64,000 bases of DNA, taken from assembly GCA_037130365.1 (NCBI GenBank), contig JBAXTE010000003.1, positions 15,458 to 79,457 on the forward strand, given 5' to 3'. The notes under the pieces are model-generated. The model saw nothing but the letters and a program-made list of their open reading frames with translations, did no database searches and was not told where the DNA came from. Made by a program: the position numbers and the translations under genes. The first letter of the stretch is position 1. The number at the start of each line of letters is the position of its first letter. The DNA is from Bacteroidota bacterium (lineage in GTDB: Bacteria > Bacteroidota > Bacteroidia > Bacteroidales > WCHB1-69). Below are positions 7,131 through 60,240 of this stretch, one piece after another.

Positions 7131-7133
7131 ATT

Positions 7134-8120: not shown

Positions 8121-8121
8121 T

Positions 8122-9414: not shown

Positions 9415-9484
9415 TGGATACCTAGCAATTTAGTGATACTAGATATTGAATTTTACACGATGCATAGTTGTTAGAAAAAAAAAT

Positions 9485-9667: not shown

Positions 9668-9767
9668 AAGAATAATACATATAAAAAATAAATAACTGAA
9701 TTACAGATGTGTGTATGCAAATATTGAAAATTTATCGAACAATAATGGAAAAAATAAAAATAAATTC

Positions 9768-16972: not shown

Positions 16973-16975
16973 ATT

Positions 16976-17602: not shown

Positions 17603-17620
17603 TTATTTAGGAGTAACTAG

Positions 17621-40527: not shown

Positions 40528-41679
40528 ATGAAAATTAAAGTCTTTTATCGTTCACTTTTGTTAATTTGTTCATTCATTTTTGGCTATTATTTTGTACTAA
40601 AAAACCAAGGTGTTCAAATTCAATCAAAGTATATGGGATTTGTATTAATTGGATTTTCGTATTCACTTTTTTTGACTATTATTCAAAGAATTAAGACTCA
40701 ACAACTTCGATTAAAGTTAACCATTTCTTCACTCCCGATTGTTTTAGGGCTTGTCTTTTTAGAGTTTTATGACTTAAAATATTATACGAACCATGAGTAT
40801 CAGATGAATCTTTATGTGCCACCGATAAATTTATATCATGTATATAGCCCAAATTCGATAACACAATGGACAAATGAAGAATATGGACATTATAGAAAAA
40901 TAAATTCTCAAGGATTGTGTGATGAAGAACAAACGATTAAAACTGATTCTCTAACCAATACAATTATTGGATTAGGCGATTCTTTTACAGAAGGATTAGG
41001 TGCTCATTCCGACTCCACTTGGTTAAAGTTTTTAGAAAGAAAAATATTATCCCAATCTCAAACAAAGTACCAATTTATTAATGCAGGTATTTCTGGAAGT
41101 GACCCAGTTTATGAATATATTTTATTACGTGATAAGCTACTAAAGTTCAAACCAAATACTGTTATTTTAGCCTTAGGATACGAGATTAATGAGATGATTA
41201 TTCGGGGAGGATTTGAACGTTTTCAAAATGATGGGACTATTAAATATCGAGATAAACCATTTTGGTATCCTTTATATAAAATATCTGGTGTTTTCAGATT
41301 ATTTGTTCGAATCTGCTTTGCAAACGAAATGCTTTTACCTGGAAATCAAGTAAAAATCGAAGAAAAAAAGGCAATTAATGAAATACAGTCGATTATACTT
41401 CTTTTTAAACAATTGGGAGAAAAAATGAATTTCAAATTAGTTTTAACAATATATCCTTTGTATAAAGAAACTATAAATAAAAAATATGATTATTGGACAG
41501 AAACGATAAAATTTGCTCAAAAAAACCAAATAATCACCGTTGACTTACTAAAGTTTTATATCGATTCCGTTCACATGAATAAAACAAATATTTCAAATTA
41601 CTATTGGCCTATAGATGGACACTATAATGCTAAAGGATATGAGAAAATGGCTGAAGGAATTTATCAATCAATAAAATAA
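40528..41679 (+). CDS. Membrane-anchored SGNH/GDSL hydrolase (paralog of the C-terminal part of 31272-33032)
   Basis: IIGLGDSFTEGLGAHSDSTWLKFLERK, FINAGISGSDPVYEY, and YYWPIDGHYNAKGY. Confidence 0.75.
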   Translation: MKIKVFYRSLLLICSFIFGYYFVLKNQGVQIQSKYMGFVLIGFSYSLFLTIIQRIKTQQLRLKLTISSLPIVLGLVFLEFYDLKYYTNHEYQMNLYVPPINLYHVYSPNSITQWTNEEYGHYRKINSQGLCDEEQTIKTDSLTNTIIGLGDSFTEGLGAHSDSTWLKFLERKILSQSQTKYQFINAGISGSDPVYEYILLRDKLLKFKPNTVILALGYEINEMIIRGGFERFQNDGTIKYRDKPFWYPLYKISGVFRLFVRICFANEMLLPGNQVKIEEKKAINEIQSIILLFKQLGEKMNFKLVLTIYPLYKETINKKYDYWTETIKFAQKNQIITVDLLKFYIDSVHMNKTNISNYYWPIDGHYNAKGYEKMAEGIYQSIK

Positions 41680-42228: not shown

Positions 42229-42828
42229 ATGATTATAGTTGGTGCAGGTTCTTCAGGTAAAGAAACCTTAGGTATGATGATACTACAATCGATTCCATTT
42301 GATGAAATTGTTTTTTTTGATGATAATTATAAAGGCTCAAACCTAATATTTGGCAAATATCAAGTTATTACGGATGTTAACAAAATGGAGTCTTACATAA
42401 ATGAATATGCGGATTTCTGTATAGCAGTTGGTAACCCACGGATTAGAGAAAAGCTATATTCAAAAATGATTTTATGGGGTGGAAAAGCAAAAAACATCAT
42501 TTCTCCAAGCTCGTATTGCATTAGTACAATAAGTGAAAACGGAACAATTATCCAACCAGGTGTTTCAATTTCTTATGATTTTCAAAGCGGGAAATCATGC
42601 ATTATTCACTCAAACAGCGTTATTGGACACAAAGTAATAATTGGAGATTTTGTTAACATAAGCCCACTGGTTTCGATTGTAGGTCCCTTAAGTATTGGAG
42701 ATTATTCTTACGTTGGGGCGGGCTCAGTAATATTGCCAAATATTAAAATTGGTAAAAACGTCTATATCTCTGCAGGTTCTGTAATTGAAAAAGATGTAGC
42801 AGATTTTGAAACAATACATAGAAAATGA
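42229..42828 (+). CDS. NeuD/PglD-family left-handed beta-helix sugar acyltransferase (paralog A)
   Basis: MIIVGAGSSGKE Rossmann-like N-domain plus hexapeptide repeats (IGHKVIIGDFVNISP, IGDYSYVGAGSVI, IGKNVYISAGSVI). Confidence 0.8.
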   Translation: MIIVGAGSSGKETLGMMILQSIPFDEIVFFDDNYKGSNLIFGKYQVITDVNKMESYINEYADFCIAVGNPRIREKLYSKMILWGGKAKNIISPSSYCISTISENGTIIQPGVSISYDFQSGKSCIIHSNSVIGHKVIIGDFVNISPLVSIVGPLSIGDYSYVGAGSVILPNIKIGKNVYISAGSVIEKDVADFETIHRK

Positions 42829-43076: not shown

Positions 43077-44066
43077 ATGAAAATGAAAATTTTACTCACA
43101 GGTGGTTTAGGTTTTATTGGTTTTCATACTGCTAAATTATTGGAAGAGAGCACAAATCATCATCTTCTTATTGTTGATGCATATAGAGAATATATCAAAC
43201 ACGACGTAAAATTCAATCCCTATATTCGCCGAGGTTCTATGATTCAAAAGTCGAATATTATCCAAGGGAATTGCAGTAATTTTTCATTTATTAAACAGAT
43301 TATTCAGGATTTTCAGCCCGAAATCATTATACATTTTGCCTCTTTACCCATTGTTTGGAAAGCTGAAAACTGGCCTGAATTAGCACATCAAGATATTGAA
43401 GAGAGTTTTAAATCAGTACTTGCAGGTTGTGAAGAAACATCACAGGTCCCCAAAAAAATCATTTATATCTCCTCATCTATGGTTTATGGTCATTTTATGC
43501 GCGACCAATTTCAAAATCTGATACCTGCAATTGAAAATCAAGCCATTACTCCGATAGATGTGTACGGTAGATGCAAAATGTTTTGCGAAAACATGCTTAC
43601 CGATTTTGCAAAAAAAACAAATTCAAATTATATTATTATTAGACCCTCAGCTGTTTATGGTCCAGAAGATTATAACAAAAGAGTGGTTGAGGCATTTTTA
43701 AAAAACGCGATTCAACATAAAGAAATTATAATTAGTGGAAATGGCGAATTAACGCTTGATTTCACCTATGTTGATGACCTAGCCAAAAGCATTTCACAAT
43801 GTATAGAAACGGATATTAGAAACGAAACATTTAATATAACTTTCGGACATGGATACACCATTAATGAATTGGCAAATATTGTTAAGCAATTGATTCCGAG
43901 TGCTAATATTAAGCATGGATTATTAGCTCCAAATCGACCAAATAGAACCTATTTAAACATCGAAAAGGCAAAAACTTTATTGGGTATAAATCCTCAAACA
44001 TCCTTAGAACAAGGCGTCGAAAAATATTATAAATACCTCATAGACCATCGTATTTATGAACAATGA
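43077..44066 (+). CDS. NAD-dependent sugar-nucleotide epimerase/dehydratase (extended SDR)
   Basis: ILLTGGLGFIGFH and YGRCK (YxxxK). ATG at 43077 preferred over the TTG at 43026. Confidence 0.8.
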   Translation: MKMKILLTGGLGFIGFHTAKLLEESTNHHLLIVDAYREYIKHDVKFNPYIRRGSMIQKSNIIQGNCSNFSFIKQIIQDFQPEIIIHFASLPIVWKAENWPELAHQDIEESFKSVLAGCEETSQVPKKIIYISSSMVYGHFMRDQFQNLIPAIENQAITPIDVYGRCKMFCENMLTDFAKKTNSNYIIIRPSAVYGPEDYNKRVVEAFLKNAIQHKEIIISGNGELTLDFTYVDDLAKSISQCIETDIRNETFNITFGHGYTINELANIVKQLIPSANIKHGLLAPNRPNRTYLNIEKAKTLLGINPQTSLEQGVEKYYKYLIDHRIYEQ

Positions 44067-45147
44067 AATAAAAATCCCATTTATTGATATCAGTAGGTTT
44101 AATAAGGAATTTAACACCGACATTAATCAAATTTGCTCCGACGTATACTCCTCGGGTCAACTGATGAATGGCGAACAGACCAGAAATTGTGAAGAAAAAC
44201 TTTCGGCAATTTATTCTTATCCAGAAACCGTAATGACTGGGAGTTGTACCGATGCCCTTTATTTTGCAATGAAAGCGCTTAATATTGGAGTTGGCGATGA
44301 GGTAATCGTGACAGTTTTATCGTTTATTGGCACGCTAAGCCCAATTCTTCGTGCAGGTGCCGTTCCAGTTTTTGTTGATATTAATCCAAGTGATGGATTG
44401 ATGGATATTGATCAGATTGAGTCAAAAATTGGCCCTCGTACAAAAGCAATAATTGCGGTACACCTTTATGGCAAGGTGCTGAATATGTGTAAATTGAACA
44501 AACTTGCAGAAAAGCACAATCTGCTGGTGATTGAAGATGCTGCACAGTCGATAGGTATAGTTGCAGAATATGGAAATTCAATAAAACCGGATGCAATTTG
44601 CTTAAGTTTTGATCCCACAAAGGTGATTCATGCATTTGGTAGTGCAGGTGCCGTAATATGCAGAGACCAACTTCTGGCAAAAAAAATCAGACAAATTCGG
44701 TATCATGGTAAATCGGGTAATGATTTCGAAATACTTGGGTATAATTCTCGGATAAATGAAGTGCAGGCAGCATTAGTACTCTTTCAAATGGATAAATTTG
44801 AAAAAATAATTCAAGCGCGAAAAGCTATTGCAGAAATGTATGTTGCAGAATTATCTAACGTCTCAGAAATAGTTTTACCAGCAGTAAATACTCCCTCAAA
44901 TTTTCATAAATTCGTAATTCATCATCCCAATCGGAATGAGTTAAAGAAATTTTTGGAGATAAATGGAGTACAAACCATGATTCATTACGAAAAATGTTTG
45001 AATGAATATTCAATTTATAAAACGGATGAAGTGTTTACAAATGCAAAAAGAATAAATAATAGCTGTTTAAGTTTACCCATCTATTATGGATTAAATTCTA
45101 ATGATTTACACATTATAATTAATCTGTTAAAAAGTTTTAATCACTGA
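44056..45147 (+). CDS. DegT/DnrJ/EryC1 PLP sugar aminotransferase
   Basis: IPFIDISRFNKEF, GSCTDALYFA, GDEVIVTVLSFIGT, and SFDPTKVIHAFGSAGAV (Lys). Confidence 0.85.
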   Translation: MNNEIKIPFIDISRFNKEFNTDINQICSDVYSSGQLMNGEQTRNCEEKLSAIYSYPETVMTGSCTDALYFAMKALNIGVGDEVIVTVLSFIGTLSPILRAGAVPVFVDINPSDGLMDIDQIESKIGPRTKAIIAVHLYGKVLNMCKLNKLAEKHNLLVIEDAAQSIGIVAEYGNSIKPDAICLSFDPTKVIHAFGSAGAVICRDQLLAKKIRQIRYHGKSGNDFEILGYNSRINEVQAALVLFQMDKFEKIIQARKAIAEMYVAELSNVSEIVLPAVNTPSNFHKFVIHHPNRNELKKFLEINGVQTMIHYEKCLNEYSIYKTDEVFTNAKRINNSCLSLPIYYGLNSNDLHIIINLLKSFNH

Positions 45148-45313: not shown

Positions 45314-45904
45314 ATGATTATTATTGGAGCAGGAAATTTAGGCAAACACATTCTAGATCAGTTGTTACAAGACAAATACACTGATGAAATTTTGTTTTTT
45401 GATGAACAAATATCCGATGATTTTATCTATGGAACATTTCGAATTATTCATGATTGGAAGACCTTTGATGAATTGATTAAAATGGATCAAAAATTCATTA
45501 TTGCAATTGGTAATTCTCGAAAAAGAGAAAAAATGTTTCTTAAGATTAAAACAGGGAACTACAGGTCGGTAATATCTACACATGCAAATTTTATTTCTAC
45601 TTTTTGCACAATTCATACTGGTACGATTATTCAACCAGGTTGTTGCATTTCTCATAATGTAATCATAGGTAATTCAGTAATTCTACATGCAAACACGTTG
45701 GTTGGTCACGACGTTACTATAGGAAATTTTGCAACAATTGGATCAAATGTAAACATACTTAAAGGAGTTAATATTGGAGAATACTCTACAATAAGCCCAA
45801 ATGTATTGATTTATCCAAATATTAAAATTGGTCGTAACGTTTTTATAGCACCCGGGGCAATTGTGAAAACAGATATTGAGGATTATAAAACTCTTTGTGA
45901 CTAG
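45314..45904 (+). CDS. NeuD/PglD-family left-handed beta-helix sugar acyltransferase (paralog B)
   Basis: MIIIGAGNLGKH plus hexapeptide repeats. Collinear similarity with the 42229-42828 product. Confidence 0.8.
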   Translation: MIIIGAGNLGKHILDQLLQDKYTDEILFFDEQISDDFIYGTFRIIHDWKTFDELIKMDQKFIIAIGNSRKREKMFLKIKTGNYRSVISTHANFISTFCTIHTGTIIQPGCCISHNVIIGNSVILHANTLVGHDVTIGNFATIGSNVNILKGVNIGEYSTISPNVLIYPNIKIGRNVFIAPGAIVKTDIEDYKTLCD

Positions 45905-46005: not shown

Positions 46006-47118
46006 CTATTCTTTTTTAAACACCCCACCAAAATTCGTCATCCTTTGATAATTTTTAAAATTTTTGTAGGTTTCATTTTCCAGTTTTAACAATTCCTCAT
46101 CCGAAAGTTCATCAATAAAACAAGTTGGATCTTCGCCCATAATATCTCCATTGTGGTAATAAGCCATAACTCTACAGCCACCACAAGTGAAATTAAATTT
46201 GCATGAACCACATTTTCCTTTAAGCTCCGAGCGATTTACCACCGTTTTAAAGAGATTAGATTCAAACAAAATTTCACGCAAATCTTGCGTGTAAACATTT
46301 CCGCCCGATACATGGTCTAATAAAAGTGGACAAGGAGCGACTTCACCTTCCGCATTTATTCCATAAAATGAGCCCACCCAACAGCCTATAGAAGGGTTTG
46401 TTGGAACAATATTCGTATTATGATCTTGCCCTGAGTGTTTTAAATAATCGGTTTCATTTAGAAATAGAGGAACATAACTTACATATCCTCTAAAATATTT
46501 TAAAAGCGATGGATGAATTTTGTCTCTCATCGTCTCTTTGTCAATCATCAAATTTTTACAATCTGAATTTCTTGGCGAAAAAGGGATTCTATTGTATGGT
46601 AATTTTAATGAGTTTATATTAGAAATGGTAGCCTCAAAGCTATCAGAATTGAATTTCCCAACGGTAACACAAAGATTAATTGTGATGTTGTTTTTCTCCA
46701 ATAATTCGATTAATTCAAGGGTTTTCGAAATGTCAAAATCTCGAGTTTCAATGTTTTTATCATCAAAAGAATTCACCCCCAAAGAAATTAAAATATTATC
46801 TCCTAATGTGACTCTTAACTTATCAATAATTTCTTGATTCATCATTTTACCATTCGTAACAATCGATATTCTAAAGCCTATATCATTTGCTTCTTTAAGC
46901 AAAGTAAATGCATCTTTTCTCAGAAGAAACTCACCTCCCGAAAAATCTATCATTCTAGTCCCCAATTCCCAAGCTGGTTTAAAAATACGGTTTACAATAC
47001 TGAAAGTCGGAATATCTGTATACTTCTGTTTTACATTAGACTTAGTAGAGCAATATTGGCAATTTAAATTACAGTTGCGAGTAGCTTCAAAATATAGAGT
47101 GTGAAAAAGTGGTTGCAT
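46006..47118 (-). CDS. Radical SAM enzyme with C-terminal SPASM domain
   Basis: The CX3CX2C cluster is in ATRNCNLNCQYCS. The SPASM cysteines are CWVGSFYGINAEGEVAPC, CGSCKFNFTCGGC and DPTC. Start set at the ATG at 47118 (M21 of the track ORF), which has a minus-strand TAnnTTTG box 10 nt upstream. Confidence 0.85.
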   Translation of the reverse strand: MQPLFHTLYFEATRNCNLNCQYCSTKSNVKQKYTDIPTFSIVNRIFKPAWELGTRMIDFSGGEFLLRKDAFTLLKEANDIGFRISIVTNGKMMNQEIIDKLRVTLGDNILISLGVNSFDDKNIETRDFDISKTLELIELLEKNNITINLCVTVGKFNSDSFEATISNINSLKLPYNRIPFSPRNSDCKNLMIDKETMRDKIHPSLLKYFRGYVSYVPLFLNETDYLKHSGQDHNTNIVPTNPSIGCWVGSFYGINAEGEVAPCPLLLDHVSGGNVYTQDLREILFESNLFKTVVNRSELKGKCGSCKFNFTCGGCRVMAYYHNGDIMGEDPTCFIDELSDEELLKLENETYKNFKNYQRMTNFGGVFKKE

Positions 47119-47128
47119 CTTTTTTAAA

Positions 47129-47136
47129 CAAAGGTA
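47129..47136 (-). promoter_or_regulatory. Candidate -7 box TAnnTTTG (tacctttg on the minus strand) for the SPASM radical SAM gene
   Basis: Plus-strand caaaggta at 47129-47136, 10 nt upstream of the minus-strand ATG at 47118. Confidence 0.4.
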
Positions 47137-47167
47137 GAAAAAAGAAAGAAATCTTGCATTAATAATG

Positions 47168-47175
47168 TATATTTG
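47168..47175 (+). promoter_or_regulatory. Candidate -7 box TAnnTTTG (tatatttg) for the FAS-like operon
   Basis: 31 nt upstream of the ATG at 47206, back to back with the minus-strand box at 47129-47136. Confidence 0.4.
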
Positions 47176-47205
47176 CAACAGTCATTTCAAGATAATTTCG
47201 CATAA

Positions 47206-48009
47206 ATGAATTACAAAAATAACTTTTGGGCTTTTATTCTTGGTGGAACAGGTAGCTTTGGTTTAGCCACTGCAAAACTTTTAGCATCTAAAGGATTTAA
47301 TTTAATACTTGTTTATCGCGAAACAAAGGGAAATATTCAAAACCTTAATTCTGAGTTTGAGATATTGAAACAACAGTGTGATGTAATTCAGTTCAATTTA
47401 AACGCAAACGAACCCGAAAATCAAAATATTATCGTTGAAACATTACTTAAATATCCTGAAATAAAAAACAAAATATCTTTTTTGCTTCACGCCATTGCTG
47501 ATGGGAATCTCAGACCGTTATTTGCAAATAATGAGGATTCAATTGAAGAGCTAAACATAGAAGACTTTCACCATACAATTAAATCTATGGGAACAAGCTT
47601 GTATCTATGGACACAACTTTTATTTAAAAATGATTTTTTTGCAGAAAATTCTTCTGTTCTAGGGCTAACTAGTGAAGGTTCTACTCGGTTTTACAATAAT
47701 TATGCAGCGGTGGCATCTGCAAAGTCAGTAATGGAATCTAATATGCGATATATTGCAGTTGAATTAGCAAAATATGGTATTAGAGCAAATCTTTTAAATG
47801 TGGGCATTACTGATACCCCAGCGCTTAAGTCTTTTCCCGATTATAAATTATTTATTGATAGGGCAAAAGAGAGAAATCCAGCAAAGCGTCTCACAACTCC
47901 AGAGGATGTTGCAAAGGTAATTGCATTTATGGCTTCAGGTGATTCTCAATGGATAAATGGGACGATTATTACTGTTGATGGTGGAGAACAATTAATAAGT
48001 CTTTATTAA
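47206..48009 (+). CDS. FabL-like enoyl-[acyl-carrier-protein] reductase (SDR with Y-x6-K)
   Basis: LGGTGSFGLA glycine motif and YNNYAAVASAK (a Y-x6-K catalytic dyad as in FabI/FabL, not YxxxK). The C-terminal half (RYIAVELAKYGIRANLLNVG..TDTPALKSFP...NGTIITVDGGEQL) closely follows the FabL pattern as I recall it. Confidence 0.7.
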   Translation: MNYKNNFWAFILGGTGSFGLATAKLLASKGFNLILVYRETKGNIQNLNSEFEILKQQCDVIQFNLNANEPENQNIIVETLLKYPEIKNKISFLLHAIADGNLRPLFANNEDSIEELNIEDFHHTIKSMGTSLYLWTQLLFKNDFFAENSSVLGLTSEGSTRFYNNYAAVASAKSVMESNMRYIAVELAKYGIRANLLNVGITDTPALKSFPDYKLFIDRAKERNPAKRLTTPEDVAKVIAFMASGDSQWINGTIITVDGGEQLISLY

Positions 48010-48449
48010 TGGAAATATCCGATAAAATTATTCAAGCTTTGCCGTATGGTAATACTTTTCGTTTTGTAGATTCAATTGAACGAGTTGATGAGGATACCAT
48101 TATCGGCAACTATACTTATAAAGAAGATTTGCCATTTTACCATTCGCATTTTCAAGGAAATCCAATAGTCCCAGGTGTTATCATTATTGAGACTATGGGC
48201 CAAATCGGAATGGTTTGTCACCTAATTTATCTATCAAATGATTATTCATTATCCACTCTGCCATTACTTTCAAATTTGGAGGCAGAGTTTTATTGTAACG
48301 CAAATTACAATGAACCTATTAAAGTAATTGGACGAAAAATTTATTTTAGGCGAAACATTCTAAAATCATCGATTGAAATGAGAAAGCTAGACGATACTCT
48401 CATCGCCACACTAACTGCATATATATCCAAAATGCCAAAATGCCAATGA
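48009..48449 (+). CDS. FabZ/FabA-like 3-hydroxyacyl-ACP dehydratase (hot-dog fold)
   Basis: The motif YHSHFQGNPIVPGVIIIETMGQ matches the FabZ active-site region (HF...P..PGV...E...Q). Confidence 0.85.
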   Translation: MEISDKIIQALPYGNTFRFVDSIERVDEDTIIGNYTYKEDLPFYHSHFQGNPIVPGVIIIETMGQIGMVCHLIYLSNDYSLSTLPLLSNLEAEFYCNANYNEPIKVIGRKIYFRRNILKSSIEMRKLDDTLIATLTAYISKMPKCQ

Positions 48450-49723
48450 ATAAACGAGTAGTAATCACAGGGATAGGAGTTGTAGCTCCGGGAAGTGTTG
48501 GTGTTGTTGAATTTAATAACCAATTAATAAATGCAATATCGGGTATAAAAAATATTCCTGATATGAAAAACTTTAATTTTAATTGTCAGGTTGGTGGTAT
48601 TTGTGAAATTGATAGTGAAGCAATAAAAAAACAATTTCCTCAATTTCAAATACCAATCATTAGTCGAAGTACATTATTGCTAGCTCTTTCATGCAAAGAG
48701 GCACTTTTAGACTCAGGTTTAATCACTTTAAATCATGATTATTCCCAGTATTTGAATTATGACCTAATAATTGGATCAACTATAAGTTCAGCTGATATTT
48801 GGGGGGAATATATTATACCTATGGTTGATAAACAAAAGCATCTCCGATTGGGTAGTAGTGCATTCGAACAAATAATTAATTCAAGTCCTACAGCAATGAT
48901 TGCAGAGATTTATGGATTAACTGGCAGAACAATATCTACTTCATTGGCATGTGCAAGTAGTACTGAAGCGATAATTGAAGCTGCAAATAAAATTAAATAT
49001 GAAAATAAGGAAATCGTAATTGCTGGTGGAGTTGAACCGTATTCTAAATATTATTGGGGTACTATGGACGCAATGAAAATAATTAATCCAAACCATAATA
49101 ATCAACCAGATAAAGCTATTAGACCTATGAGTGAAAGTGCAAATGGATTTGTGCCTTCTGAAGGTAGCGGAATAATTATTCTTGAAGAATATAATCATGC
49201 AAAAAAGCGAAATGCAAAAATTTATGGTGAAATAATAGGAAGCCATATTAATTGCGGAGGAGGAAGAAATGGGGGAAGCATGACGGCTTCTAATAAAGAT
49301 ATGCTTAGAAAATGTATTTTTGAAACTATCCAAAACTCAAATATTAGCGCAAGTGAGATTGATTTAATATCTGGCCATTTAACTGCTACAAAAGCTGATT
49401 CTGCCGAAGTTAATGCATGGAATATTGGGCTTAATTTTCCGAAAAAATTTCCGTATATCAATTCAACGAAATCATTAATTGGTCACACATTAGGTGCTTG
49501 TGGAGTAATTGAAGTGATAGCTATAATTTTGCAAATGAAAGGGAAGTACATTCATGCATCCATAAATTGTGAGGATATTCATCCTTTAATTTCGGAAAAA
49601 ATATCTCAAAAATGTGTGCCTCAAAAAACAATTCACAATATTGATATACAGTATGCTATAAAGGCAAATTTTGGATTTGGAGATGTAAATGCCAGCTTAA
49701 TAATAAAAAACTTAAATGAATAA
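48440..49723 (+). CDS. Beta-ketoacyl-ACP synthase (FabF/FabB-like KS) 1
   Basis: RVVITGIGVV. Active-site Cys in LACASS, His in SGHLTATKAD and STKSLIGHTLGACG. C-terminal FGFGDVNASLI. Confidence 0.9.
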   Translation: MPMNKRVVITGIGVVAPGSVGVVEFNNQLINAISGIKNIPDMKNFNFNCQVGGICEIDSEAIKKQFPQFQIPIISRSTLLLALSCKEALLDSGLITLNHDYSQYLNYDLIIGSTISSADIWGEYIIPMVDKQKHLRLGSSAFEQIINSSPTAMIAEIYGLTGRTISTSLACASSTEAIIEAANKIKYENKEIVIAGGVEPYSKYYWGTMDAMKIINPNHNNQPDKAIRPMSESANGFVPSEGSGIIILEEYNHAKKRNAKIYGEIIGSHINCGGGRNGGSMTASNKDMLRKCIFETIQNSNISASEIDLISGHLTATKADSAEVNAWNIGLNFPKKFPYINSTKSLIGHTLGACGVIEVIAIILQMKGKYIHASINCEDIHPLISEKISQKCVPQKTIHNIDIQYAIKANFGFGDVNASLIIKNLNE

Positions 49724-50993
49724 TAGGGTTGTTATTACGGGAATCGGAGTCATCTCTCCTAATGGAATTGGTAAAAATTCCTTTGTAAACTCTATAAGGG
49801 GGGGGGTATCAGGAATAAGAAATATTCCTGATATGGAAAAACATAATTTACTATGTCATATCGGAGGTGTTCCCGAAATAAACTGGAATGATTATAATTC
49901 ATTTTTTGCAGAAAATGAATTGCTAGATGCCGATATTTCAATAAAGTATGGAGTCCTTTCAGGCATAGAAGCATGGAGGGATGCTGGATTAGAAATTAAT
50001 GACACCAAAAACATTGACACTCTTACTGACTGCGGGGCTATCATTGGAACTACTTTTGGTGGAATAGAGGTTTTTATTAGAAAAATATTACCCCTTGTTG
50101 ACACTGGAAACTTTAGAAAATTAGGAAGTCAAATTATGGAGCATTTTATGCCAAGTGGAACATCAGCGGCACTTTCTAAAATATTAGCATTATCAAATAT
50201 TAATTCATCAAATTCTTCAGCTTGCTCTACAGGACTAGAAGCAATATATTTTTCATATCAACACATCAAAAACAATAAAGCGAAACTTATGATGACTGGT
50301 GGTACTGATCTATATTCGTCATATTGCTGGGCAGGTTTCGACTCTATGAGAGTTTTAAATCGATCATCTAACAATAACCCATCTATTGGGAGCAGACCAA
50401 TGAGTGCCACTGCAAGTGGATTTGTGCCAGCAGCTGGCTCAAGTGTGTTAATACTTGAAGAATTAGAACATGCCATTGAACGAAACGCACCGATATATGC
50501 AGAAATTGTTGGAGCAAGTGTTAATTCTGGTGGCCAACGAAACGGTGGATCTATGACCTTCCCAAACCCTAAGCGTGTAATTGATTGCATTCAGGATTCA
50601 ATTCACCAAGCCAATATTAAAGGAGATGATATTAACCTAATTTGTGGACATTTAACTGGGACCAAGGCCGATTCAATTGAAATTAATAATTGGGTTGCAG
50701 CTTTGAATCTTAGTAATAACATTCCATATATTAATTCTTTAAAGTCGATGACAGGTCATTTAATCGGGGCTGCTGGTGCATTAGAAACTGCAGCTGCTGT
50801 TTTACAACTCCATCACGATTTTGTCCATCCATCTATTAATAGTGAAGATCTTCACCCTGAAATTGCCAAGCTTATTCCTCGCGAAAAAATCCCGCTTAAA
50901 ATTATTGAAAATGCTGGACTAAAATATATCGCAAAAGCAAGCTTTGGATTTGGTGATGTGAATTCCTGTATAATTTTGAAAAAATATGAGTAA
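49716..50993 (+). CDS. Beta-ketoacyl-ACP synthase (FabF/FabB-like KS) 2
   Basis: RVVITGIGVI. Cys retained in SACSTG, His in CGHLTGTKAD and LKSMTGHLIGAAG. It is therefore not a Cys-less chain-length-factor type. Confidence 0.9.
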   Translation: MNNRVVITGIGVISPNGIGKNSFVNSIRGGVSGIRNIPDMEKHNLLCHIGGVPEINWNDYNSFFAENELLDADISIKYGVLSGIEAWRDAGLEINDTKNIDTLTDCGAIIGTTFGGIEVFIRKILPLVDTGNFRKLGSQIMEHFMPSGTSAALSKILALSNINSSNSSACSTGLEAIYFSYQHIKNNKAKLMMTGGTDLYSSYCWAGFDSMRVLNRSSNNNPSIGSRPMSATASGFVPAAGSSVLILEELEHAIERNAPIYAEIVGASVNSGGQRNGGSMTFPNPKRVIDCIQDSIHQANIKGDDINLICGHLTGTKADSIEINNWVAALNLSNNIPYINSLKSMTGHLIGAAGALETAAAVLQLHHDFVHPSINSEDLHPEIAKLIPREKIPLKIIENAGLKYIAKASFGFGDVNSCIILKKYE

Positions 50994-51021
50994 TTTTGCT
51001 CTATCATAAATACCAAAAATT

Positions 51022-51264
51022 ATGGACGAAAATAAGAATAAAGTTATCGAGATTCTTAAAAAGTATACTTTTAATGAATCTGTTTGGGATAACTATACTG
51101 AAAACTCAAAAATCATTGTTGATTTAAAAATCAATTCTGCCCGAATTGTTGATATAATTCTAGATGTTGAGGATGAATATGGGATCGTTATTGACGATTA
51201 TTTGCTCGAAAAACTAATTACGATTAAAGATATATTGGATATTATTGAACAAAAAAGAAAATAA
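51022..51264 (+). CDS. Acyl carrier protein (phosphopantetheine-binding)
   Basis: 80 aa and acidic. DLKINSARIVDIILDVEDEYG corresponds to the DLG.DS....E helix-II region, with the Ser as the attachment site. Confidence 0.7.
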   Translation: MDENKNKVIEILKKYTFNESVWDNYTENSKIIVDLKINSARIVDIILDVEDEYGIVIDDYLLEKLITIKDILDIIEQKRK

Positions 51265-51341: not shown

Positions 51342-52304
51342 ATGGGAACACCTATTTTAAGTATCGGAATCATCTCTTATAATCAAGCTGAATTTATCGA
51401 AAAAGCGATTAATTCGGTTATGGCACAGCAAACCCAATATCCTTTTGAGTTGATTATTTGTGACGATGCATCAGAAGACAATACCGACGACATTGTCAAT
51501 GGATTATTGCGAGGGGTTAGCTTTTCCACACAATATGTCAGAAACAAAACTAGAAAAGGGCCACTTTTAAACGGTAAAAACTTCATAAAACATGCTTCTG
51601 GAAAGTATCTTTGCTGGATGGATGCCGATGATTATTGGTGCTATGAAAATAAAATTCAAAAACAAATTGACTTTTTAGAATCCAATTTAGATTATAATGG
51701 TTGCTTTCATGATGCCAAAATAATCTCGGATATTGAGATAAACGAAGATCTTTCTGAGCAATTGAAGGAACAAACACATGGTAGATGGAAAAGTTATTCG
51801 CAGTTTAATACGTATCAATCCGACTTTTATCCTTGGGATGTATTACAGCGCAAAATTATTCCAACGGCTTCATTAATGATTCGGAATAGGGATTTAAACC
51901 ATTTCCTCGAAAAGCATTTAGATGTAAATTTATCTGTTAGTTGGGCATTACATTTAGAGCTAATAAAAAATAGTAAGTTTAAGTATTTCAACGAATTATG
52001 GTCGGTTTATTTTGATCATGCCAAAGGCTTTTCAAAGAGTATCGACCTAGTTACTTTTAAACTAAATAATATTCAAATTTTATTCAAATTATTAGATGAT
52101 GCGTATTATAGTGCCTTAAAAAAAGATGTTTATCGAGCCATTGCTAACGAGTACTACTTTTTACTTCATAGCGCTGAAGCACAAAAACGAAGTACTAAAG
52201 AGTATCGAGATTATTGCAAGGCCTATACAAAATGGGCTGATAAGGCTACCAAAGAAGATGTTGAAAGATTTAAAACCACTCATAAACTTAAAAACCAACA
52301 GTAA
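51342..52304 (+). CDS. Glycosyltransferase family 2
   Basis: LSIGIISYNQAEFIEKAINSV...ELIICDDASEDNT and a later DADD motif. Confidence 0.85.
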   Translation: MGTPILSIGIISYNQAEFIEKAINSVMAQQTQYPFELIICDDASEDNTDDIVNGLLRGVSFSTQYVRNKTRKGPLLNGKNFIKHASGKYLCWMDADDYWCYENKIQKQIDFLESNLDYNGCFHDAKIISDIEINEDLSEQLKEQTHGRWKSYSQFNTYQSDFYPWDVLQRKIIPTASLMIRNRDLNHFLEKHLDVNLSVSWALHLELIKNSKFKYFNELWSVYFDHAKGFSKSIDLVTFKLNNIQILFKLLDDAYYSALKKDVYRAIANEYYFLLHSAEAQKRSTKEYRDYCKAYTKWADKATKEDVERFKTTHKLKNQQ

Positions 52305-54092
52305 ATGTGTGGAATCCTCGGGAAAGTAAGTTTTAATGCACCGATTGATCAAGATGAGTTTGTTGCTCAGCGAGATACAATGACTTCTAGAGGCCCGAAT
52401 CAAGAAGGGTTGTATTTTAATTCCGCCAAAAAAATTGCTCTTGGATATCGCCGATTAAGTATCAATGATTTAAGCGAATTAGGCAATCAGCCTATTTCTA
52501 ACGAGGACTCAACAATCTTTTTAATATGTAATGGCGAAATATATAATTCACCCAAGTTAAAGGAAGAACTTATTAAATTAGGTCACCATTTTAAAAGTCG
52601 CTCAGATGCAGAAGTTATCATTCATGGATACGAAGAGTGGGGAACAGAAATTCTAAAAAGAGTTGAAGGCATGTTTGCTTTTGGAATATGGGATTCAAAA
52701 AAAGATGAACTAATCGTTGCCAGAGACAGATTTGGCATAAAACCACTTTATTTCGAAAGTAATGATGAAAGTTTCACCTTTGCATCTTCACTTAACGCTA
52801 TTATTACGGCAAAAAATCATCACAAAAAGTTAGATTTTTCATCCATTTGCGATTATCTAACGTATCGTTATGTACCTTCGCCAAAAAGTATTTATCAAGG
52901 AATCTGCAAACTCGAGCCCGCTCAATTTTTGGTATTAACTGCTCAAAAAAAGGTTCAAATTCAATATTATTGGGCAATAGAGTACAAACCTATAAAAATG
53001 TCACCCGCTGAGGTTCAGAAACAATTTGAGCATTTATTACGACAATCGGTACGCAAACATTTAATGAGCGACGTGCCCGTAGGTTCCTTTTTGAGCAGTG
53101 GCTACGATTCATCTACGTTGGCTTTATTGATGACCGAAGAAAATTATCAGCCTCAAACATTTAGTTTAGGGTTTTCTAATTGGGAAGAAAGTGAACATTT
53201 GATTGCGCAAAAAACGGCCGATATATTAAAACTCAATAATCATTCGTTGATCATTGATTTTAAGGATTTTATACCCGAAAACTTTATCGATGCATACGAT
53301 GAACCTATTGCTGATATTTCTACAATACCCACTTTTTGCATCAGTAATTTTGCGTCAAAGAAAGTTAAAACAGTTTTTTCGGGCGAAGGAGCAGACGAAC
53401 TTTTAGGCGGGTATGATTGGCATCGTAAAATAATGCAAAAGTACAATCAACGATCAATTTCTGATAGGTTATTTAGAGATTTTAATCCTACAGCAATCGA
53501 AATTTATAAGGAGTATATGGCGATGGGCAAATTTGACCGTGATGAATTACTAAAACTCTTTTCCCCAGAGCACCATTATCAAATTCCCGAAAATCCGTAT
53601 TGGTTTTTTGAGCAAAGTTTTAGAAAAGATTTGCCTTTATTAAAGGCGATTCAATATATGGATATCAGGGGCTTTATGGGGGAGTTAGTACTTAGTAAAA
53701 TTGACCGCTCAAGTATGGCACATTCCCTAGAAGTTAGAGTCCCATACTTAGACTATGACTTATTTGATTTTTTGTTTAATCTTGAGCCAGATGCTTATTT
53801 CTCGTTAGTGGAACAAAAAAAACTTCTTGTAAACCTTCTCAAACCCAAACTGCCACATGTTGTAAATCGCAAAAAACAAGGATTTGTAGGACCTAACGAA
53901 TATTACAATCGAGTAGAATTATATAAGGATATTCTTAAAAACTCTAAATTAGAAGATCTCGGTATTCTAAATAAGAAGTATTTATTACAATTATTTTCCA
54001 ACAATGATATGTGGAGAATTTGGAAATTAGTACTTTTGGAGTTATGGCTACAACATAATTTTGGCTCAAACAGTTCGTTAAAATCAAACTAA
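52305..54092 (+). CDS. asnB: Asparagine synthase (glutamine-hydrolysing) family amidotransferase
   Basis: N-terminal nucleophile MCGI, GNQP, the RGPD-like RGPNQEG, and a PP-loop-like FLSSGYDSS in the synthetase domain. Confidence 0.85.
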   Translation: MCGILGKVSFNAPIDQDEFVAQRDTMTSRGPNQEGLYFNSAKKIALGYRRLSINDLSELGNQPISNEDSTIFLICNGEIYNSPKLKEELIKLGHHFKSRSDAEVIIHGYEEWGTEILKRVEGMFAFGIWDSKKDELIVARDRFGIKPLYFESNDESFTFASSLNAIITAKNHHKKLDFSSICDYLTYRYVPSPKSIYQGICKLEPAQFLVLTAQKKVQIQYYWAIEYKPIKMSPAEVQKQFEHLLRQSVRKHLMSDVPVGSFLSSGYDSSTLALLMTEENYQPQTFSLGFSNWEESEHLIAQKTADILKLNNHSLIIDFKDFIPENFIDAYDEPIADISTIPTFCISNFASKKVKTVFSGEGADELLGGYDWHRKIMQKYNQRSISDRLFRDFNPTAIEIYKEYMAMGKFDRDELLKLFSPEHHYQIPENPYWFFEQSFRKDLPLLKAIQYMDIRGFMGELVLSKIDRSSMAHSLEVRVPYLDYDLFDFLFNLEPDAYFSLVEQKKLLVNLLKPKLPHVVNRKKQGFVGPNEYYNRVELYKDILKNSKLEDLGILNKKYLLQLFSNNDMWRIWKLVLLELWLQHNFGSNSSLKSN

Positions 54093-54138: not shown

Positions 54139-55530
54139 ATGATGAGGGCAATTCAAAAAACCATCAATAAGTTAATATTTAAATGTCGGCTTAAAGAATA
54201 CAATAAAACTAGAAATAATGGCAATGTGATCTTTTGCTATGCCCCTTCAAAAGCATTGAGATTTTCGCTTAACGGACATGCTTTTGTTTGTTGTTTTAAT
54301 AGATTAAATTCACTTGGAAGATATCCGATCAATTCAATATCAGATATTTGGAATAATTCAATTAAAGAAGATTTACATAAATCAATAAATTATAAACAAA
54401 ACAATACTCTTGGTTGCCATTATTGCTACGATACAATAATGAGTAAGAGTTTTCATCTTACGGGTGCTAGAAATTATGACAATTATAATAATGAAGTAAC
54501 AAGTAATTATCCTTTATTAATTGATTTTGAACTTAGCAATACGTGTAATCTAAAATGCATCATGTGTAATGGAGAAAACTCAAGTAGCATTCGAAGTCAG
54601 ATTGAAAACAAAGACAACTACCCCAATTATTACGATGATTACTTTTTAGAACAATTAACCGAATTTATCCCATATTTAAAAGAAACCAGATTTTCTGGAG
54701 GAGAACCATTTTTAATTGATTTATATTATGATTTATGGGATAAGATACACAGCATAAACCCTTTATGCAAAATAATAATTCAAACAAATGGTACTATTAT
54801 TAATGAAAAGATACTAGAACTCTATTCGAAATACAACTTTCATTTATCATTTTCTATCGATTCTGTGAATAAAACCACATACGAGTCCATTCGAATTGGT
54901 GCTTCATTTGAAAAAGTAATGAGCAATTTCGAAATCATACATAAGTTATCACAAAAATTAAATCGTGAAATCGGTGTAAGCATTTGTATATTAAAAAACA
55001 ATATTCGTGAATTTAGAGATTATGTAAATTACTTTAATAATTTGAACACAAAAATCACGATTCATAAAGTATTAACTCCAATTAATCATAGTATATATTC
55101 ACTATCAATTTCTGAATTAGAATCCATAAAAAAAGATTTTATCAGTTACAAGTTCACTTCTAAAAATTCTATTGAAGAGTGGAATAACAAACTTTTCAGT
55201 AGTGTAGTATTTTTTATTGAATCGGTTTTAAAGCTAAAAAAAGCAAATGATTCAAATAAGGAAATTCAAACCAGTAAAAACAGTAGAGCGGCATTTATAT
55301 CAATAATACAAAGGGTAATAAATGATAATGTTAGTGCCATTCCTAAAGAAATACTTATTGAAAAAATCGAGGAGTTAATTTTAAATATTGATAAAATTCA
55401 AAATTCAAAAGAAGTCTATGATAACATTATACATCTTCCGGATGAATACATAATATCAGAACTAAACATAAACGATATTGATCGGATTATAAGTCGAATT
55501 ACTGCAAATAAAAATCATAAGAATGATTGA
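54139..55530 (+). CDS. Radical SAM protein with N-terminal twitch/SPASM-like Cys motif (paralog 1)
   Basis: N-terminal CYAPSKALRFSLNGHAFVCC...IWNNSIKEDL...GCHYC, followed by the core SNTCNLKCIMCNG (CX3CX2C). ATG at 54139 preferred over the TTG at 54112. Confidence 0.8.
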   Translation: MMRAIQKTINKLIFKCRLKEYNKTRNNGNVIFCYAPSKALRFSLNGHAFVCCFNRLNSLGRYPINSISDIWNNSIKEDLHKSINYKQNNTLGCHYCYDTIMSKSFHLTGARNYDNYNNEVTSNYPLLIDFELSNTCNLKCIMCNGENSSSIRSQIENKDNYPNYYDDYFLEQLTEFIPYLKETRFSGGEPFLIDLYYDLWDKIHSINPLCKIIIQTNGTIINEKILELYSKYNFHLSFSIDSVNKTTYESIRIGASFEKVMSNFEIIHKLSQKLNREIGVSICILKNNIREFRDYVNYFNNLNTKITIHKVLTPINHSIYSLSISELESIKKDFISYKFTSKNSIEEWNNKLFSSVVFFIESVLKLKKANDSNKEIQTSKNSRAAFISIIQRVINDNVSAIPKEILIEKIEELILNIDKIQNSKEVYDNIIHLPDEYIISELNINDIDRIISRITANKNHKND

Positions 55531-56902
55531 AAAATTTCACAAAAATAGATTGATTACAAAATACAAAAAGATAAGAGAGCAGCCCGATGCTCCTATTTGT
55601 TTGGCCCCTTTTAATTCGCTTTTTTTTGCCCCTTACGGAAGAATTATGTCTTGTTGGTATAATAAAAGAGAGCCCTTAGGCAATTATCCAGAAAATTCGA
55701 TTCAAGAAATTTGGTTTGGAGAAAAACTTGAAAACTTAAGAAAACATTTGCTTAAATACGATTTCTCACAAGGATGTGAAGTTTGTTATGCACATTTAAA
55801 AAAGAAAAACTTTTATTCTGTAGATGCAAATAGATACGATTATTTAGCCCAAGGTGATGGCAATCATCCTTCCTCTTTTGAGTTTCAGATTAGCCACCAA
55901 TGCAACTTTGAGTGCATTATGTGCAATGGTGAACTATCTTCGGGTGTAAGGCAAAATAGGGAAATGATGGATATGTACAAAAATCCTTACGACGAAAATT
56001 TTGTGATTCAACTATTGCCATATTTGCCATATCTTAAGGATGCTGCTTTTTCGGGTGGGGAACCTTTTTTAAATAAAATATATTTTGATATTTGGGAACA
56101 TTTAGCACAATTAAATCCAGAGGTAAAAATATCATTAACCACAAACGGGAGTATATTAAATGCTAAGGTAAAAGAGTATTTGAACAAATTGAAGTTTAAT
56201 ATTTCAATCTCTATCGACTCTCTGAATGAGGAGAATTATTCCTTAATTCGAAAAAATGGTGACTTGCAAAAGATGTTGGATAATTTTCAATATTTTTTAT
56301 CATACACCCGAGAAATAGGCACTTCTATGTCTATTAAAACCTGTCCGATGAAGCAAAATATTTTTGAAATACCTCTCATTTTAGAATTTGCCAACACACA
56401 AAATGTCCCAGTTTTTTTTAACACTGTAATTTATCCTCCTAATTGCACTTTAATCAACCAAAAATCAGAGAAATTGAAGGAGCAAATTATATTTCTTAAG
56501 TCTTATACATTCGATAATTCAGAAAATAAATGTGGTAATTTTAATCGATATTTTGCTTTAATACAACAAATTGAAGGGTGGTACGAGGATTCAATAATTC
56601 GCGAGAAGAACTATAAAAATTCAGTATTGAATTATGAGTACTTTATGAAAGTAGTAATTAAGAATGTTGCTCTATTTGTCAACGAGAATTCCGATTTCCC
56701 CGCAAAAGTAAAGAACCTTAAAATTATGTATTATAAAGACTTTTTAACTGAGGTTTTTGACTTAATTGTTGAAGAGCAAACAAAACTGTCAGCAGTTAAA
56801 TACCTATCCGAAATACCAATTTTTAGATTGTTATCAGAAATTGAATTTCGAGATCCACAACGATTAGCAGACCGACTTATTTATTCAAATTATAATGATT
56901 AG
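55523..56902 (+). CDS. Radical SAM protein with N-terminal twitch/SPASM-like Cys motif (paralog 2)
   Basis: CLAPFNSLFFAPYGRIMSC...IWFGEKLENLRKHL...GCEVC, then SHQCNFECIMCNG. Collinear with the preceding ORF (FSGGEPFL, TNG.I.N, SIDS motifs shared). 8-nt overlap. Confidence 0.8.
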   Translation: MIEKFHKNRLITKYKKIREQPDAPICLAPFNSLFFAPYGRIMSCWYNKREPLGNYPENSIQEIWFGEKLENLRKHLLKYDFSQGCEVCYAHLKKKNFYSVDANRYDYLAQGDGNHPSSFEFQISHQCNFECIMCNGELSSGVRQNREMMDMYKNPYDENFVIQLLPYLPYLKDAAFSGGEPFLNKIYFDIWEHLAQLNPEVKISLTTNGSILNAKVKEYLNKLKFNISISIDSLNEENYSLIRKNGDLQKMLDNFQYFLSYTREIGTSMSIKTCPMKQNIFEIPLILEFANTQNVPVFFNTVIYPPNCTLINQKSEKLKEQIIFLKSYTFDNSENKCGNFNRYFALIQQIEGWYEDSIIREKNYKNSVLNYEYFMKVVIKNVALFVNENSDFPAKVKNLKIMYYKDFLTEVFDLIVEEQTKLSAVKYLSEIPIFRLLSEIEFRDPQRLADRLIYSNYND

Positions 56903-60201: not shown

Positions 60202-60240
60202 GATGTAAATTATATGTATTTATACTTATTTCATTATTAA

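Follow-up and report, generated by a model that had tools for sequence, protein, structure and literature searches.

A 64-kb stretch of contig JBAXTE010000003.1 from a Bacteroidota bacterium (assembly GCA_037130365.1), referred to here as the window, contains a fatty acid synthase (FAS)-like gene cassette that is one mosaic member of a widespread, uncharacterised glycan-acylation module of the Bacteroidota. The cassette encodes, in order, a short-chain dehydrogenase/reductase (SDR), a dehydratase (DH), two ketosynthases (KS1 and KS2), and an acyl carrier protein (ACP), and it is divergently paired with a gene for a SPASM-type radical S-adenosylmethionine (rSAM) enzyme. It probably represents an incomplete type II FAS (FAS-II) or polyketide-like synthase dedicated to glycan formation, the acyl product of which would most likely become the N-acyl group of a 4-amino-4,6-dideoxy-type sugar in a lipopolysaccharide (LPS)- or O-antigen-like polymer. 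This reading draws on intact catalytic motifs, the presence of a dedicated ACP, synteny with genes for amino-sugar N-acylation, and the absence of a ketoreductase (KR) and a malonyl-type acyltransferase (AT) throughout the family.

Acyl groups on surface glycans influence antigenicity, recognition by phages and the immune system, and membrane properties, and the known examples of ACP-dependent glycan acylation are few and mostly predicted. The module described here is set apart by FabF-type KS enzymes of an uncharacterised clade, by the constant lack of a KR, and by a SPASM enzyme that is locked in and accompanied by further rSAM genes. It occurs widely among uncultured anaerobic Bacteroidota of digesters, sludge, and sediments. 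Gene neighbourhoods were read in nine distinct related loci, and 80 metagenome loci were additionally fetched with a SPASM profile (loci are referred to by L numbers). In the window, open reading frames (ORFs) of at least 138 aa were scanned with Pfam and NCBIfam. No description of the module was found in the literature searched, the coverage of which was incomplete.

Ketosynthases of the cassette

KS1 (48440-49723, + strand) and KS2 (49716-50993, +) are both FabF-like and share 42% identity. Alignment shows that each retains the equivalents of FabF Cys163, His303, and His340, together with Lys335 and the FGFG motif. With this Cys-His-His triad, the lysine, and the FGFG gate, both would classify as elongating enzymes of the β-ketoacyl-ACP synthase I/II type. 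The nucleophilic Cys is retained in 24 of 25 sequences of the KS1 clade and in all 23 of the KS2 clade, and both His residues occur in every one of them. A heterodimer of a KS and a chain length factor (CLF), of the type II polyketide synthase (PKS) or anammox sort, is not indicated, as the triad is intact in both subunits. The original prediction, made from the DNA letters alone, had likewise noted the Cys and both His residues in each enzyme and argued against such a pair. Against the FabF equivalog model TIGR03150, KS1 and KS2 score 237.4 and 263.7 bits, respectively, below the cut-off of 493.75.

The KS phylogeny was analysed with a neighbour-joining tree of 144 KS sequences and a bootstrapped subset. 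KS1, KS2, the single KS of related loci, and the KS of two secondary FAS-II sets (L017 and L018) form one clade with 100/100 bootstrap support, which falls outside E. coli FabF and FabB, the Firmicute-type FabF, and NodE. Within it, KS1 (100/100) and KS2 (99/100) belong to distinct paralogue clades. The original prediction had named such a tree as the check on whether the genes simply constitute the primary FAS. By sequence, the cassette is not the primary FAS, because both KS lie in this fully supported clade outside housekeeping FabF/FabB.

Identities agree with this placement. KS1 and KS2 share 28-31% identity with E. coli FabF and FabB, and 23-33% with FabF, FabB, and NodE overall. NodE itself shares 23-28% identity with them and stands outside the clade, which argues against orthology. 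Within the family, KS1 is 57-61% identical to KS1 of L013, L019, L020, and L021 and has no counterpart in the single-KS loci, while KS2 reaches 51-60% identity with the KS of every related locus and represents the universally present type. KS1 orthologues at 56-61% identity occur only in metagenome-assembled genomes (MAGs) of Bacteroidales and other Bacteroidota; a further set at 42-47% identity is spread over many phyla. A guess at chain length from the FabF Ile108 position was abandoned: KS2 of the window has Phe there, but the residue is variable across the clade.

Reductase, dehydratase, and carrier protein

The SDR (47206-48009, +) carries the dyad YNNYAAVASAK (Y-x6-K), which aligns with Y151/K158 of B. 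subtilis FabL and Y156/K163 of E. coli FabI and is kept in its orthologues. The Y-x3-K spacing seen in FabG and NodG is absent. FabL and FabI are the best matches: the highest NCBIfam score is obtained with FabL (NF005975, 134 bits, below the equivalog cut-off of 328), and the best match in the Protein Data Bank (PDB) is B. subtilis FabL (3oic). The protein is thus a putative enoyl-ACP reductase (ER) of the FabL/FabI type, as originally proposed. It is an accessory member of the family, being present in 16 of 35 informative loci, defined as those in which the SPASM homologue reaches 49% identity or more and the upstream flank measures 3.5 kb or more.

The DH (48009-48449, +) contains a Pfam FabA domain and retains the catalytic His (in HFxxxPxxPGV) and Glu of FabZ. 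These residues would make it a FabZ-type hot-dog dehydratase, in keeping with the earlier assignment. It scores 43-47 bits against FabZ models with cut-offs of 113-155 (43.5 against 113 in one case) and is not an equivalog. A DH was found in all seven compared loci.

The last gene of the cassette (51022-51264, +) encodes a dedicated ACP of 80 aa with a DLKINS motif. In alignment with E. coli AcpP, the phosphopantetheine-bearing Ser36 is invariant, by which the protein is predicted to be a carrier, although family models give only sub-threshold NCBIfam matches and no Pfam match. That it is a genuine carrier protein is supported because a dedicated phosphopantetheinyl transferase (PPTase) gene follows the ACP in several loci (L020, L028, and L029). 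The INS motif had been singled out as non-canonical. It is indeed present in a real carrier, yet it is a clade trait, common to the ACPs of complete secondary FAS-II sets.

SPASM radical-SAM partner

The SPASM rSAM gene (46006-47118, − strand) is the conserved partner of the cassette and encodes a full C-terminal SPASM domain. Its ATG start was preferred over the TTG at 47178 given in the mechanical ORF list; the homologues measure 370-376 aa. The Pfam models Radical_SAM (71 bits) and SPASM (28.4 bits) both score above cut-off, and the CX3CX2C motif and the full Cys set of the auxiliary-cluster SPASM domain are invariant across 47 homologues. The named SPASM subfamilies in NCBIfam (AhbD, NirJ, PqqE, sactisynthases, and others) gave 62 matches, all of them below cut-off, the best being AhbD with 132.9 bits against 500. 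A total of 552 homologues was retrieved, and among the top 120 every named one is a Bacteroidota MAG. The AlphaFold (AF2) model has a pLDDT of 90.5, and its nearest solved folds in Foldseek are PqqE, SuiB, anSME, SkfB, CteB, MoaA, and BlsE with TM scores of approximately 0.5-0.6. This comparison of folds does not separate peptide, sugar, and acyl substrates.

The pairing with the cassette is genuine. DH and KS genes adjoin the SPASM gene in 29 of the 35 informative loci, and at least one FAS-like gene does so in 31. Conserved synteny thereby backs the link that had originally been drawn from the shared intergenic region, and takes it further. The pairing is the part of the system that had not been described before, and the reaction would be a radical modification.

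Homologues of approximately 40% identity (21 loci, L089-L109), mostly from high-GC organisms, lack any partner gene. Because all partner genes are absent, this group is regarded as a different, sister subfamily. Two of its members have neighbours of anecdotal interest: the gene in L102 lies beside acyl-CoA carboxylase subunits and a methylmalonyl-CoA mutase, and that in L108 has a 964-aa AMP-binding enzyme and a pair of FabG-like genes as neighbours.

Within the family proper, two reduced arrangements were observed. In L048 (5881-9116) and L069, a minimal four-gene island is found, in which the SPASM gene faces ACP, PPTase, and glycosyltransferase family 2 (GT2) genes. No KS, DH, DegT, or PglD gene occurs within the flanks (approximately 6-8 kb on each side for L048, upstream only for L069). 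Housekeeping genes, a SurA-like gene and RNase HII, surround the islands. In L072 (7974-11814) and L084, the order SPASM-PglD-DegT-dehydratase is found at the edge of the locus, with no FAS-like gene within 8 kb upstream. The upstream neighbour in L072 is a fused glycogen synthase/phosphorylase gene. The islands tie the SPASM enzyme to a carrier protein, and the other two loci tie it to an amino sugar; taken together, these arrangements point both ways.

Conservation and layouts of the module

The cassette forms the middle of a conserved module extending from approximately 42.2 to 58.3 kb of the window. It had been described as self-contained, a description that does not hold: it lacks KR, AT, and PPTase genes, and it sits in a larger unit with amino-sugar genes, a GT2 glycosyltransferase, an AsnB-like amidotransferase, and more rSAM genes. 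In all seven compared loci, PglD-like, SPASM, DH, KS, AsnB-like, and N-twitch rSAM genes occur together. DegT, ACP, GT2, and B12-type rSAM genes are each found in six of the seven.

The absence of a KR, an AT (FabD), and a KSIII (FabH) was confirmed. FabG-, FabD-, and FabH-type genes are missing from the scanned window ORFs, and FabD-, FabG-, and FabH-like genes from all 26 large loci. The only other SDR of the window (10546-11325) is a PtmA-type enzyme of the nonulosonate pathway. Neither the same scans nor tblastn revealed a PPTase encoded in the window, and acc genes are absent as well. A PglD-like gene is found in 21 of the 26 large loci and a DegT gene in 16.

The module was detected in dozens of Bacteroidota metagenome loci, in three layouts. 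The SPASM gene is combined with SDR-DH-KS-ACP in 13 loci and with DH-KS1-KS2-ACP, lacking an SDR, in nine; a single KS without an SDR is found in five. Neither the ER nor the second KS is a constant component: the SDR is missing from about half of the related loci, and KS1 from most loci with an SDR. Across the metagenome loci L030-L088, the SDR and KS1 are nearly mutually exclusive, and SDR, KS1, and KS2 are found together only in the window, in L033, and in L019, where the SDR lies on the opposite strand. This alternation suggests two alternative acyl products, with the window as a recombinant.

Sequence identities fit such an origin. The window carries two genes for PglD-like left-handed β-helix (LbH) sugar N-acyltransferases, PglD#1 (42229-42828, +) and PglD#2 (45314-45904, +). 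PglD#2, SPASM, SDR, and DH are closest to their counterparts in single-KS loci (56-75% identity), whereas KS1 and PglD#1 are closest to those of two-KS loci (52-61%). Judged by these values, the window copy is a mosaic of the layout with an SDR and one KS and the layout with KS1 and KS2. The naturally occurring layouts (ER plus one KS, two KS without ER, and the mosaic of the window) offer ready comparisons for the contribution of each part.

The clearest interleaving of the cassette with amino-sugar genes is seen in the compact locus L028, in the order Wzm/Wzt, dehydratase, DegT, PglD, SPASM (−), SDR, DH, KS, ACP, and PPTase. Some two-KS loci contain a conserved ORF of 190-240 aa between KS2 and ACP (L015, 12548-13120; L021, 12524-13246). 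These ORFs matched no Pfam or NCBIfam family and are not PPTases. The Cys-containing product looks like a flavodoxin or an NAD(P)H-dependent FMN reductase and could serve as electron donor to the rSAM enzymes. In L019, SLFN/AlbA_2 and Fic-like genes are inserted between the KS genes and the ACP (16027-17885), and in L026 a DDE transposase lies between the GDSL and DegT genes (13125-14567). With such insertions of mobile or defence type inside related modules, these loci appear to be recombination-prone.

Proposed pathway

In the proposed pathway, the Ser of the DLKINS motif would be phosphopantetheinylated by a housekeeping PPTase in the case of the window, with related loci supplying their own, and malonate would be loaded by housekeeping FabD. 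A KS2-type enzyme would prime and elongate the chain, and KS1, if present, would add or specialise a further condensation. β-Keto reduction is presumably borrowed from housekeeping FabG, because a KR is found in no locus of the family; NodFE provide the precedent for borrowing housekeeping FAS enzymes. From their motifs, the DH would dehydrate the intermediate and the FabL-like SDR, where present, would reduce the enoyl group. The SPASM enzyme may then modify either the chain on the ACP or the acylated sugar by radical chemistry. Synteny and the precedent of the Flavobacterium wfp genes suggest that the PglD-like LbH acyltransferase moves the acyl group to the amino sugar provided by the adjacent dehydratase and DegT enzyme. 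Finally, the GT2 would install the sugar, and the AsnB-like amidotransferase and the other rSAM enzymes might tailor it further.

PglD#2 is the candidate acyl-ACP:amino-sugar N-acyltransferase. It contains PglD_N and Hexapep domains, is convergent with the SPASM gene, and is 56-64% identical to the gene at the same position in L026 and L027. Its PDB relatives are LpxA, PerB, PglD, VioB, and LpxD.

Several points weigh against this pathway. To our knowledge, characterised PglD-family enzymes take acyl-CoA and not acyl-ACP, and the reliance on housekeeping FabG, FabD, and AcpS is assumed. Product, chain length, and acceptor are predicted from gene content, and no cultured carrier was found; a contig scan with KS2 peptides returned only distant FabF-like genes of 25-34% identity, which represent outgroups. 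The GDSL/SGNH-like protein encoded in many loci would offer an alternative route by O-acylation. Furthermore, L072 and L084 keep the SPASM, PglD, DegT, and dehydratase genes with no FAS genes nearby, and L048 and L069 contain only the SPASM gene with ACP, PPTase, and GT2; therefore, the unit is not strictly a FAS cassette plus an amino-sugar trio.

More speculatively, the SPASM enzyme could act on the ACP-bound acyl chain or on the ACP itself, introducing a C-C cross-link, a ring, or an unusual desaturation or decarboxylation, before the chain is amide-linked to an O-antigen sugar. This version is a tentative one and is held with considerable doubt. If true, it would represent a new class of rSAM chemistry, with acyl-ACP as substrate, and a tractable system for radical reactions on carrier-protein substrates. 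Together with the twitch- and B12-type rSAM enzymes, it would further suggest that anaerobic Bacteroidota possess an unexplored family of surface glycans heavily tailored by radical enzymes.

Relation to known systems

Partial FAS-II sets for the acylation of glycoconjugates are already known, namely the acpXL cluster, NodFE, and Flavobacterium wfpC-G. The cluster acpXL-fabZXL-fabF2XL-fabF1XL-adhA2XL-lpxXL belongs to LPS biosynthesis and has no KR, AT, or KSIII of its own (PMC11901934). By gene content it is the closest system, with a dedicated ACP, FabZ, two FabF, and one oxidoreductase, completed by an acyltransferase (PMC11901934). An ACP, a FabZ, and two FabF without KR and AT in one locus are equally found in the window, and the novelty of this combination is thus reduced by an LPS precedent (PMC11901934). 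The two systems differ in several respects. The acpXL oxidoreductase is annotated merely as a dehydrogenase, whereas that of the cassette is a FabL-type SDR; the acpXL transferase is LpxXL, acting on lipid A, whereas that of the cassette is PglD-like. Neither an LpxXL-type lipid A acyltransferase nor an adhA2XL-type dehydrogenase was found in the window scans. The acpXL cluster is found in Alphaproteobacteria and lacks rSAM genes; the comparison with it covered gene content.

The wfpC-G genes of F. psychrophilum comprise two KS, an ACP, a KR, and a PglD homologue (PMC6519341). From the known structure of the glycan, the PglD homologue is expected to carry 3,5-dihydroxyhexanoyl over from the ACP to UDP-Qui2NAc4N (PMC6519341). 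This system is the closest by logic and by phylum, as it likewise involves a Bacteroidota O-antigen locus, a dedicated ACP, two KS, a reductase, and a DegT-made 4-amino sugar. The combination of an ACP, two KS, a PglD homologue, and a sugar aminotransferase in an O-antigen locus is also present in the window. However, wfp encodes KS of the FabH type (333 and 350 aa) and, as reductase, a FabG-type KR, whereas the KS of the cassette are FabF-type and a KR is missing. The wfp genes include no DH, ER, or rSAM enzyme.

The rhizobial NodF and NodE are a specialised ACP and a FabF/B-like KS, respectively, for the N-acyl chain of the Nod factor; they use housekeeping FAS enzymes, and their product is N-linked to an amino sugar. 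For the comparison, the pSymA positions of NodE, NodF, and NodG were determined by tblastn and by reading ORFs. In contrast to the cassette ACP, NodF has the canonical DSL motif; the transferase of the Nod system is NodA, and DH, ER, and rSAM enzymes are lacking.

The closest relatives by sequence are the complete secondary FAS-II sets of L017 (6344-12679) and L018 (6947-12387), which come from two MAGs, one of them of Leptospiraceae. KS, ACP, DH, and ER of these sets fall into the same clades as their cassette counterparts, with 44-48% identity to KS1 and KS2 for the KS, the motif DL(K/E)INS common to the ACPs, and matching types of ER and DH. Unlike the cassette, such sets include FabD, KR, and PPTase genes of their own along with only one KS, and they lack a SPASM gene and a glycan context; they are themselves uncharacterised. 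The sets consist of FabD, a FabL-like ER, KR, DH, KS, ACP, and PPTase genes, to which FabA-like and PlsC-like genes may be added. In L018, a full operon for biotin synthesis (BioB/F/D/A and a BPL/LplA-family gene) directly adjoins the set.

The ladderane cluster of anammox bacteria contains amxACP, amxFabZ, two FabF homologues, and rSAM enzymes (PMC13459092). One of the FabF proteins has a mutated triad and is CLF-like (bioRxiv 10.64898/2026.05.19.726425). An ACP, a FabZ, two FabF-like KS, and rSAM genes are common to both systems. The anammox cluster differs from the cassette in its dead FabF, in other classes of rSAM enzymes, in phylum, and in its membrane-lipid context as opposed to a glycan locus. 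The SPASM partner occurs in none of the acpXL, wfp, secondary FAS-II, and anammox systems.

Alternative explanations

The parallel with acpXL raises the question of whether the product of the cassette is a long or unusual fatty acid acting as lipid anchor, in lipid A or a glycolipid, comparable to the AcpXL-dependent very-long-chain fatty acid or a capsule anchor, and not a short N-acyl group of a sugar. Its ACP, FabZ, two FabF, and oxidoreductase mirror acpXL-fabZXL-fabF2XL-fabF1XL-adhA2XL, the window also encodes an LPS heptosyltransferase, and the nearest KS relatives belong to complete secondary FAS-II sets, one of which includes a PlsC-type acyltransferase (L017). A lipid anchor is nevertheless unlikely, given that the window and the related glycan loci revealed no LpxXL/LpxL- or PlsC-type acyltransferase and that the invariable neighbours are DegT and PglD-like amino-sugar enzymes. 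A primary housekeeping FAS-II is hardly credible at all, even though FabF, FabZ, FabL, and ACP are the best family matches. The scores fall far under the equivalog cut-offs (237 and 264 of 494 for FabF, 43.5 of 113 for FabZ, and 134 of 328 for FabL) and the KS clade is separated from FabF/FabB with full bootstrap support. FabD, FabG, FabH, and acc genes are missing, the cassette lies within a glycan locus, and its layout differs between close relatives, which would be unexpected for an essential operon.

Another reading is a natural-product pathway centred on a small molecule or carrier protein, in which the ACP or an ACP-bound intermediate is the substrate of the rSAM enzyme and the glycan genes are mere neighbours. 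The minimal islands amid housekeeping genes in L048 and L069 would suit such a pathway, the closest solved folds are SPASM enzymes that modify proteins or peptides, and the homologues of approximately 40% identity adjoin the carboxylase, mutase, AMP-binding, and FabG-like genes mentioned above. However, a GT2 gene is retained even in the minimal islands, PglD-like and DegT genes recur in the large loci at the frequencies given above, neither a precursor-peptide gene nor an RRE domain is apparent, and the module always lies inside glycan loci where the flank suffices; this pathway is accordingly considered quite unlikely. A cluster for a pigment of the aryl-polyene (APE) or flexirubin type, or for a ladderane-type lipid, is very improbable. 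Weak ApeI-like matches of the DH, a weak match of one related SDR to FlxB, and the ladderane-like combination of ACP, FabZ, two FabF, and rSAM genes speak for it. Against this, both KS triads are intact, whereas one anammox subunit is dead and a CLF forms part of APE and type II PKS systems. APE clusters are marked by a second ACP, an ApeQ-type ketoreductase, and an ammonia-lyase for the aryl starter, none of which was found in the Pfam and NCBIfam scans. For the ladderane type, the B12/rSAM lipid protein model TIGR04072 gives ORF 56941-58311 only 23.8 bits against a cut-off of 360. Taxon and genomic context are different as well.

Gene junctions and promoter elements

The ORF coordinates, overlaps, and 87-nt gap of the original prediction agree with the ORF map and the sequence. 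All the motifs it quoted are likewise present and are conserved in orthologues. The SDR and DH genes overlap by 1 nt (TAATG), DH and KS1 by 10 nt, or by 4 nt (ATGA) if the alternative start of NCBI is used, and KS1 and KS2 by 8 nt. The divergent intergenic region of 87 nt between the SPASM and SDR genes (47119-47205) holds two TAnnTTTG elements, which we take to be the −7 promoter element of Bacteroidota, one directed towards each gene (47168-47175, +; 47129-47136, −). Their promoter role is suggestive only and remains an inference because the motif is not enriched across the whole window (109 found, 115 expected). Scans for sigma-70 promoters and terminators gave results at or below shuffle expectation. 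The plus strand from 47206 to approximately 55577 contains no terminator-like site and is for this reason consistent with one long operon.

TAnnTTTG is found 10-180 nt, mostly 15-60 nt, 5' of many start codons in intergenic gaps. Examples are positions 176, 14765, 26182, 28645, 31213, 34181, 42203, 42969, 45283, and 47168 on the plus strand and 38962, 40123, and 47129 on the minus strand.

Glycan locus around the cassette

The window as a whole is an LPS/O-antigen-type glycan locus. Every scanned ORF fits this assignment, including nonulosonate genes, a Wzx flippase, glycosyltransferases, carbamoyltransferases, WbuX, and an LPS heptosyltransferase. Three DegT and three PglD-like genes are present.

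Upstream of the cassette, on the far side of the SPASM gene, the module contains the amino-sugar genes. PglD#1 carries PglD_N and Hexapep domains (146 bits for the NeuD/PglB/VioB family) and is 52-55% identical to the PglD-like gene of L013, L019, L020, and L021, the copy of the two-KS loci. It is followed by a gene of the NDP-sugar 4,6-dehydratase/epimerase family (43077-44066, +), which matches Pfam Epimerase and GDP_Man_Dehyd and, best in NCBIfam but below cut-off, dTDP-glucose 4,6-dehydratase. The DegT sugar aminotransferase (44056-45147, +; DegT_DnrJ_EryC1, 291 bits) is of the PseC or 4-amino-4,6-dideoxy type, its best NCBIfam matches being PseC and dTDP-4-amino-4,6-dideoxygalactose transaminase. 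Ahead of PglD#1, a GDSL/SGNH-like protein (40528-41679, +; Pfam Lipase_GDSL_2) has homologues in L020 and L021 and is a variable module member. It is possibly an O-acyl transferase or an esterase. A separate GDSL-like family is found in L013, L021, L026, and L027.

Downstream of the ACP, a soluble GT2 glycosyltransferase is encoded (51342-52304, +; Glycos_transf_2, 83 bits). In related loci, the GT2 gene always comes after the ACP, sometimes with the PPTase in between. An assignment as an ArnC/GtrB-type polyprenyl-phosphate glycosyltransferase was rejected, as no hydrophobic segments are seen at the C-terminus of the translation and NCBIfam matches it best to TuaG, PglI, and EpsE. The GT2 gene is abutted by that of the AsnB-like glutamine amidotransferase (52305-54092, +; Asn_synthase and GATase_7).

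Three further rSAM genes complete the module. The first (54139-55530, +) has an N-terminal twitch/SPASM-like domain and scores 141.6 bits against NF033640 (N_Twi_rSAM; cut-off 170). The second of this N-terminal-twitch type (55523-56902, +) scores 149 bits against NF033640, with Pfam SPASM at residues 26-88, and its N-terminal part matches the twitch domain of BtrN. Related loci contain one to four copies of such genes. The third (56941-58311, +) is class-B-like, i.e. of the B12-binding type, with a Radical_SAM domain and weak matches to BchE, HpnR, and HpnJ. It is 26% identical to L027_19932, one member of a B12-rSAM family found in the six other compared loci.

At the beginning of the window (363-11325), a Leg/Pse-type nonulosonic-acid pathway is encoded. 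The set comprises a DegT and a PglD-like protein, two NeuB homologues, a hydrolysing 2-epimerase, a CBS-nucleotidyltransferase, and a CMP-transferase, along with a GFO/IDH/MocA oxidoreductase, a class-III aminotransferase, a CN-hydrolase, and the PtmA-type SDR. The two NeuB copies suggest either two different nonulosonates or a single modified one.

Two NodU/CmcH-type carbamoyltransferases (28688-30553, +; 36038-37687, −) indicate that the glycan of the window may be carbamoylated; in L029, one such gene adjoins GT2-AsnB. A WbuX-type N-acetyl-sugar amidotransferase (37741-38931, −; 216 bits, above cut-off) and two carbon-nitrogen hydrolases (39242-40066, −; 9711-10568, +) make acetimidoyl or amide chemistry on sugars likely. 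The region downstream of the module (58316-62803, −) encodes several multi-pass membrane proteins without a family match. Among the products of this region is a GtrC-like protein of 683 aa (DUF6056/GT_STM0557_N), which could act as periplasmic transferase or polymerase for the modified glycan.

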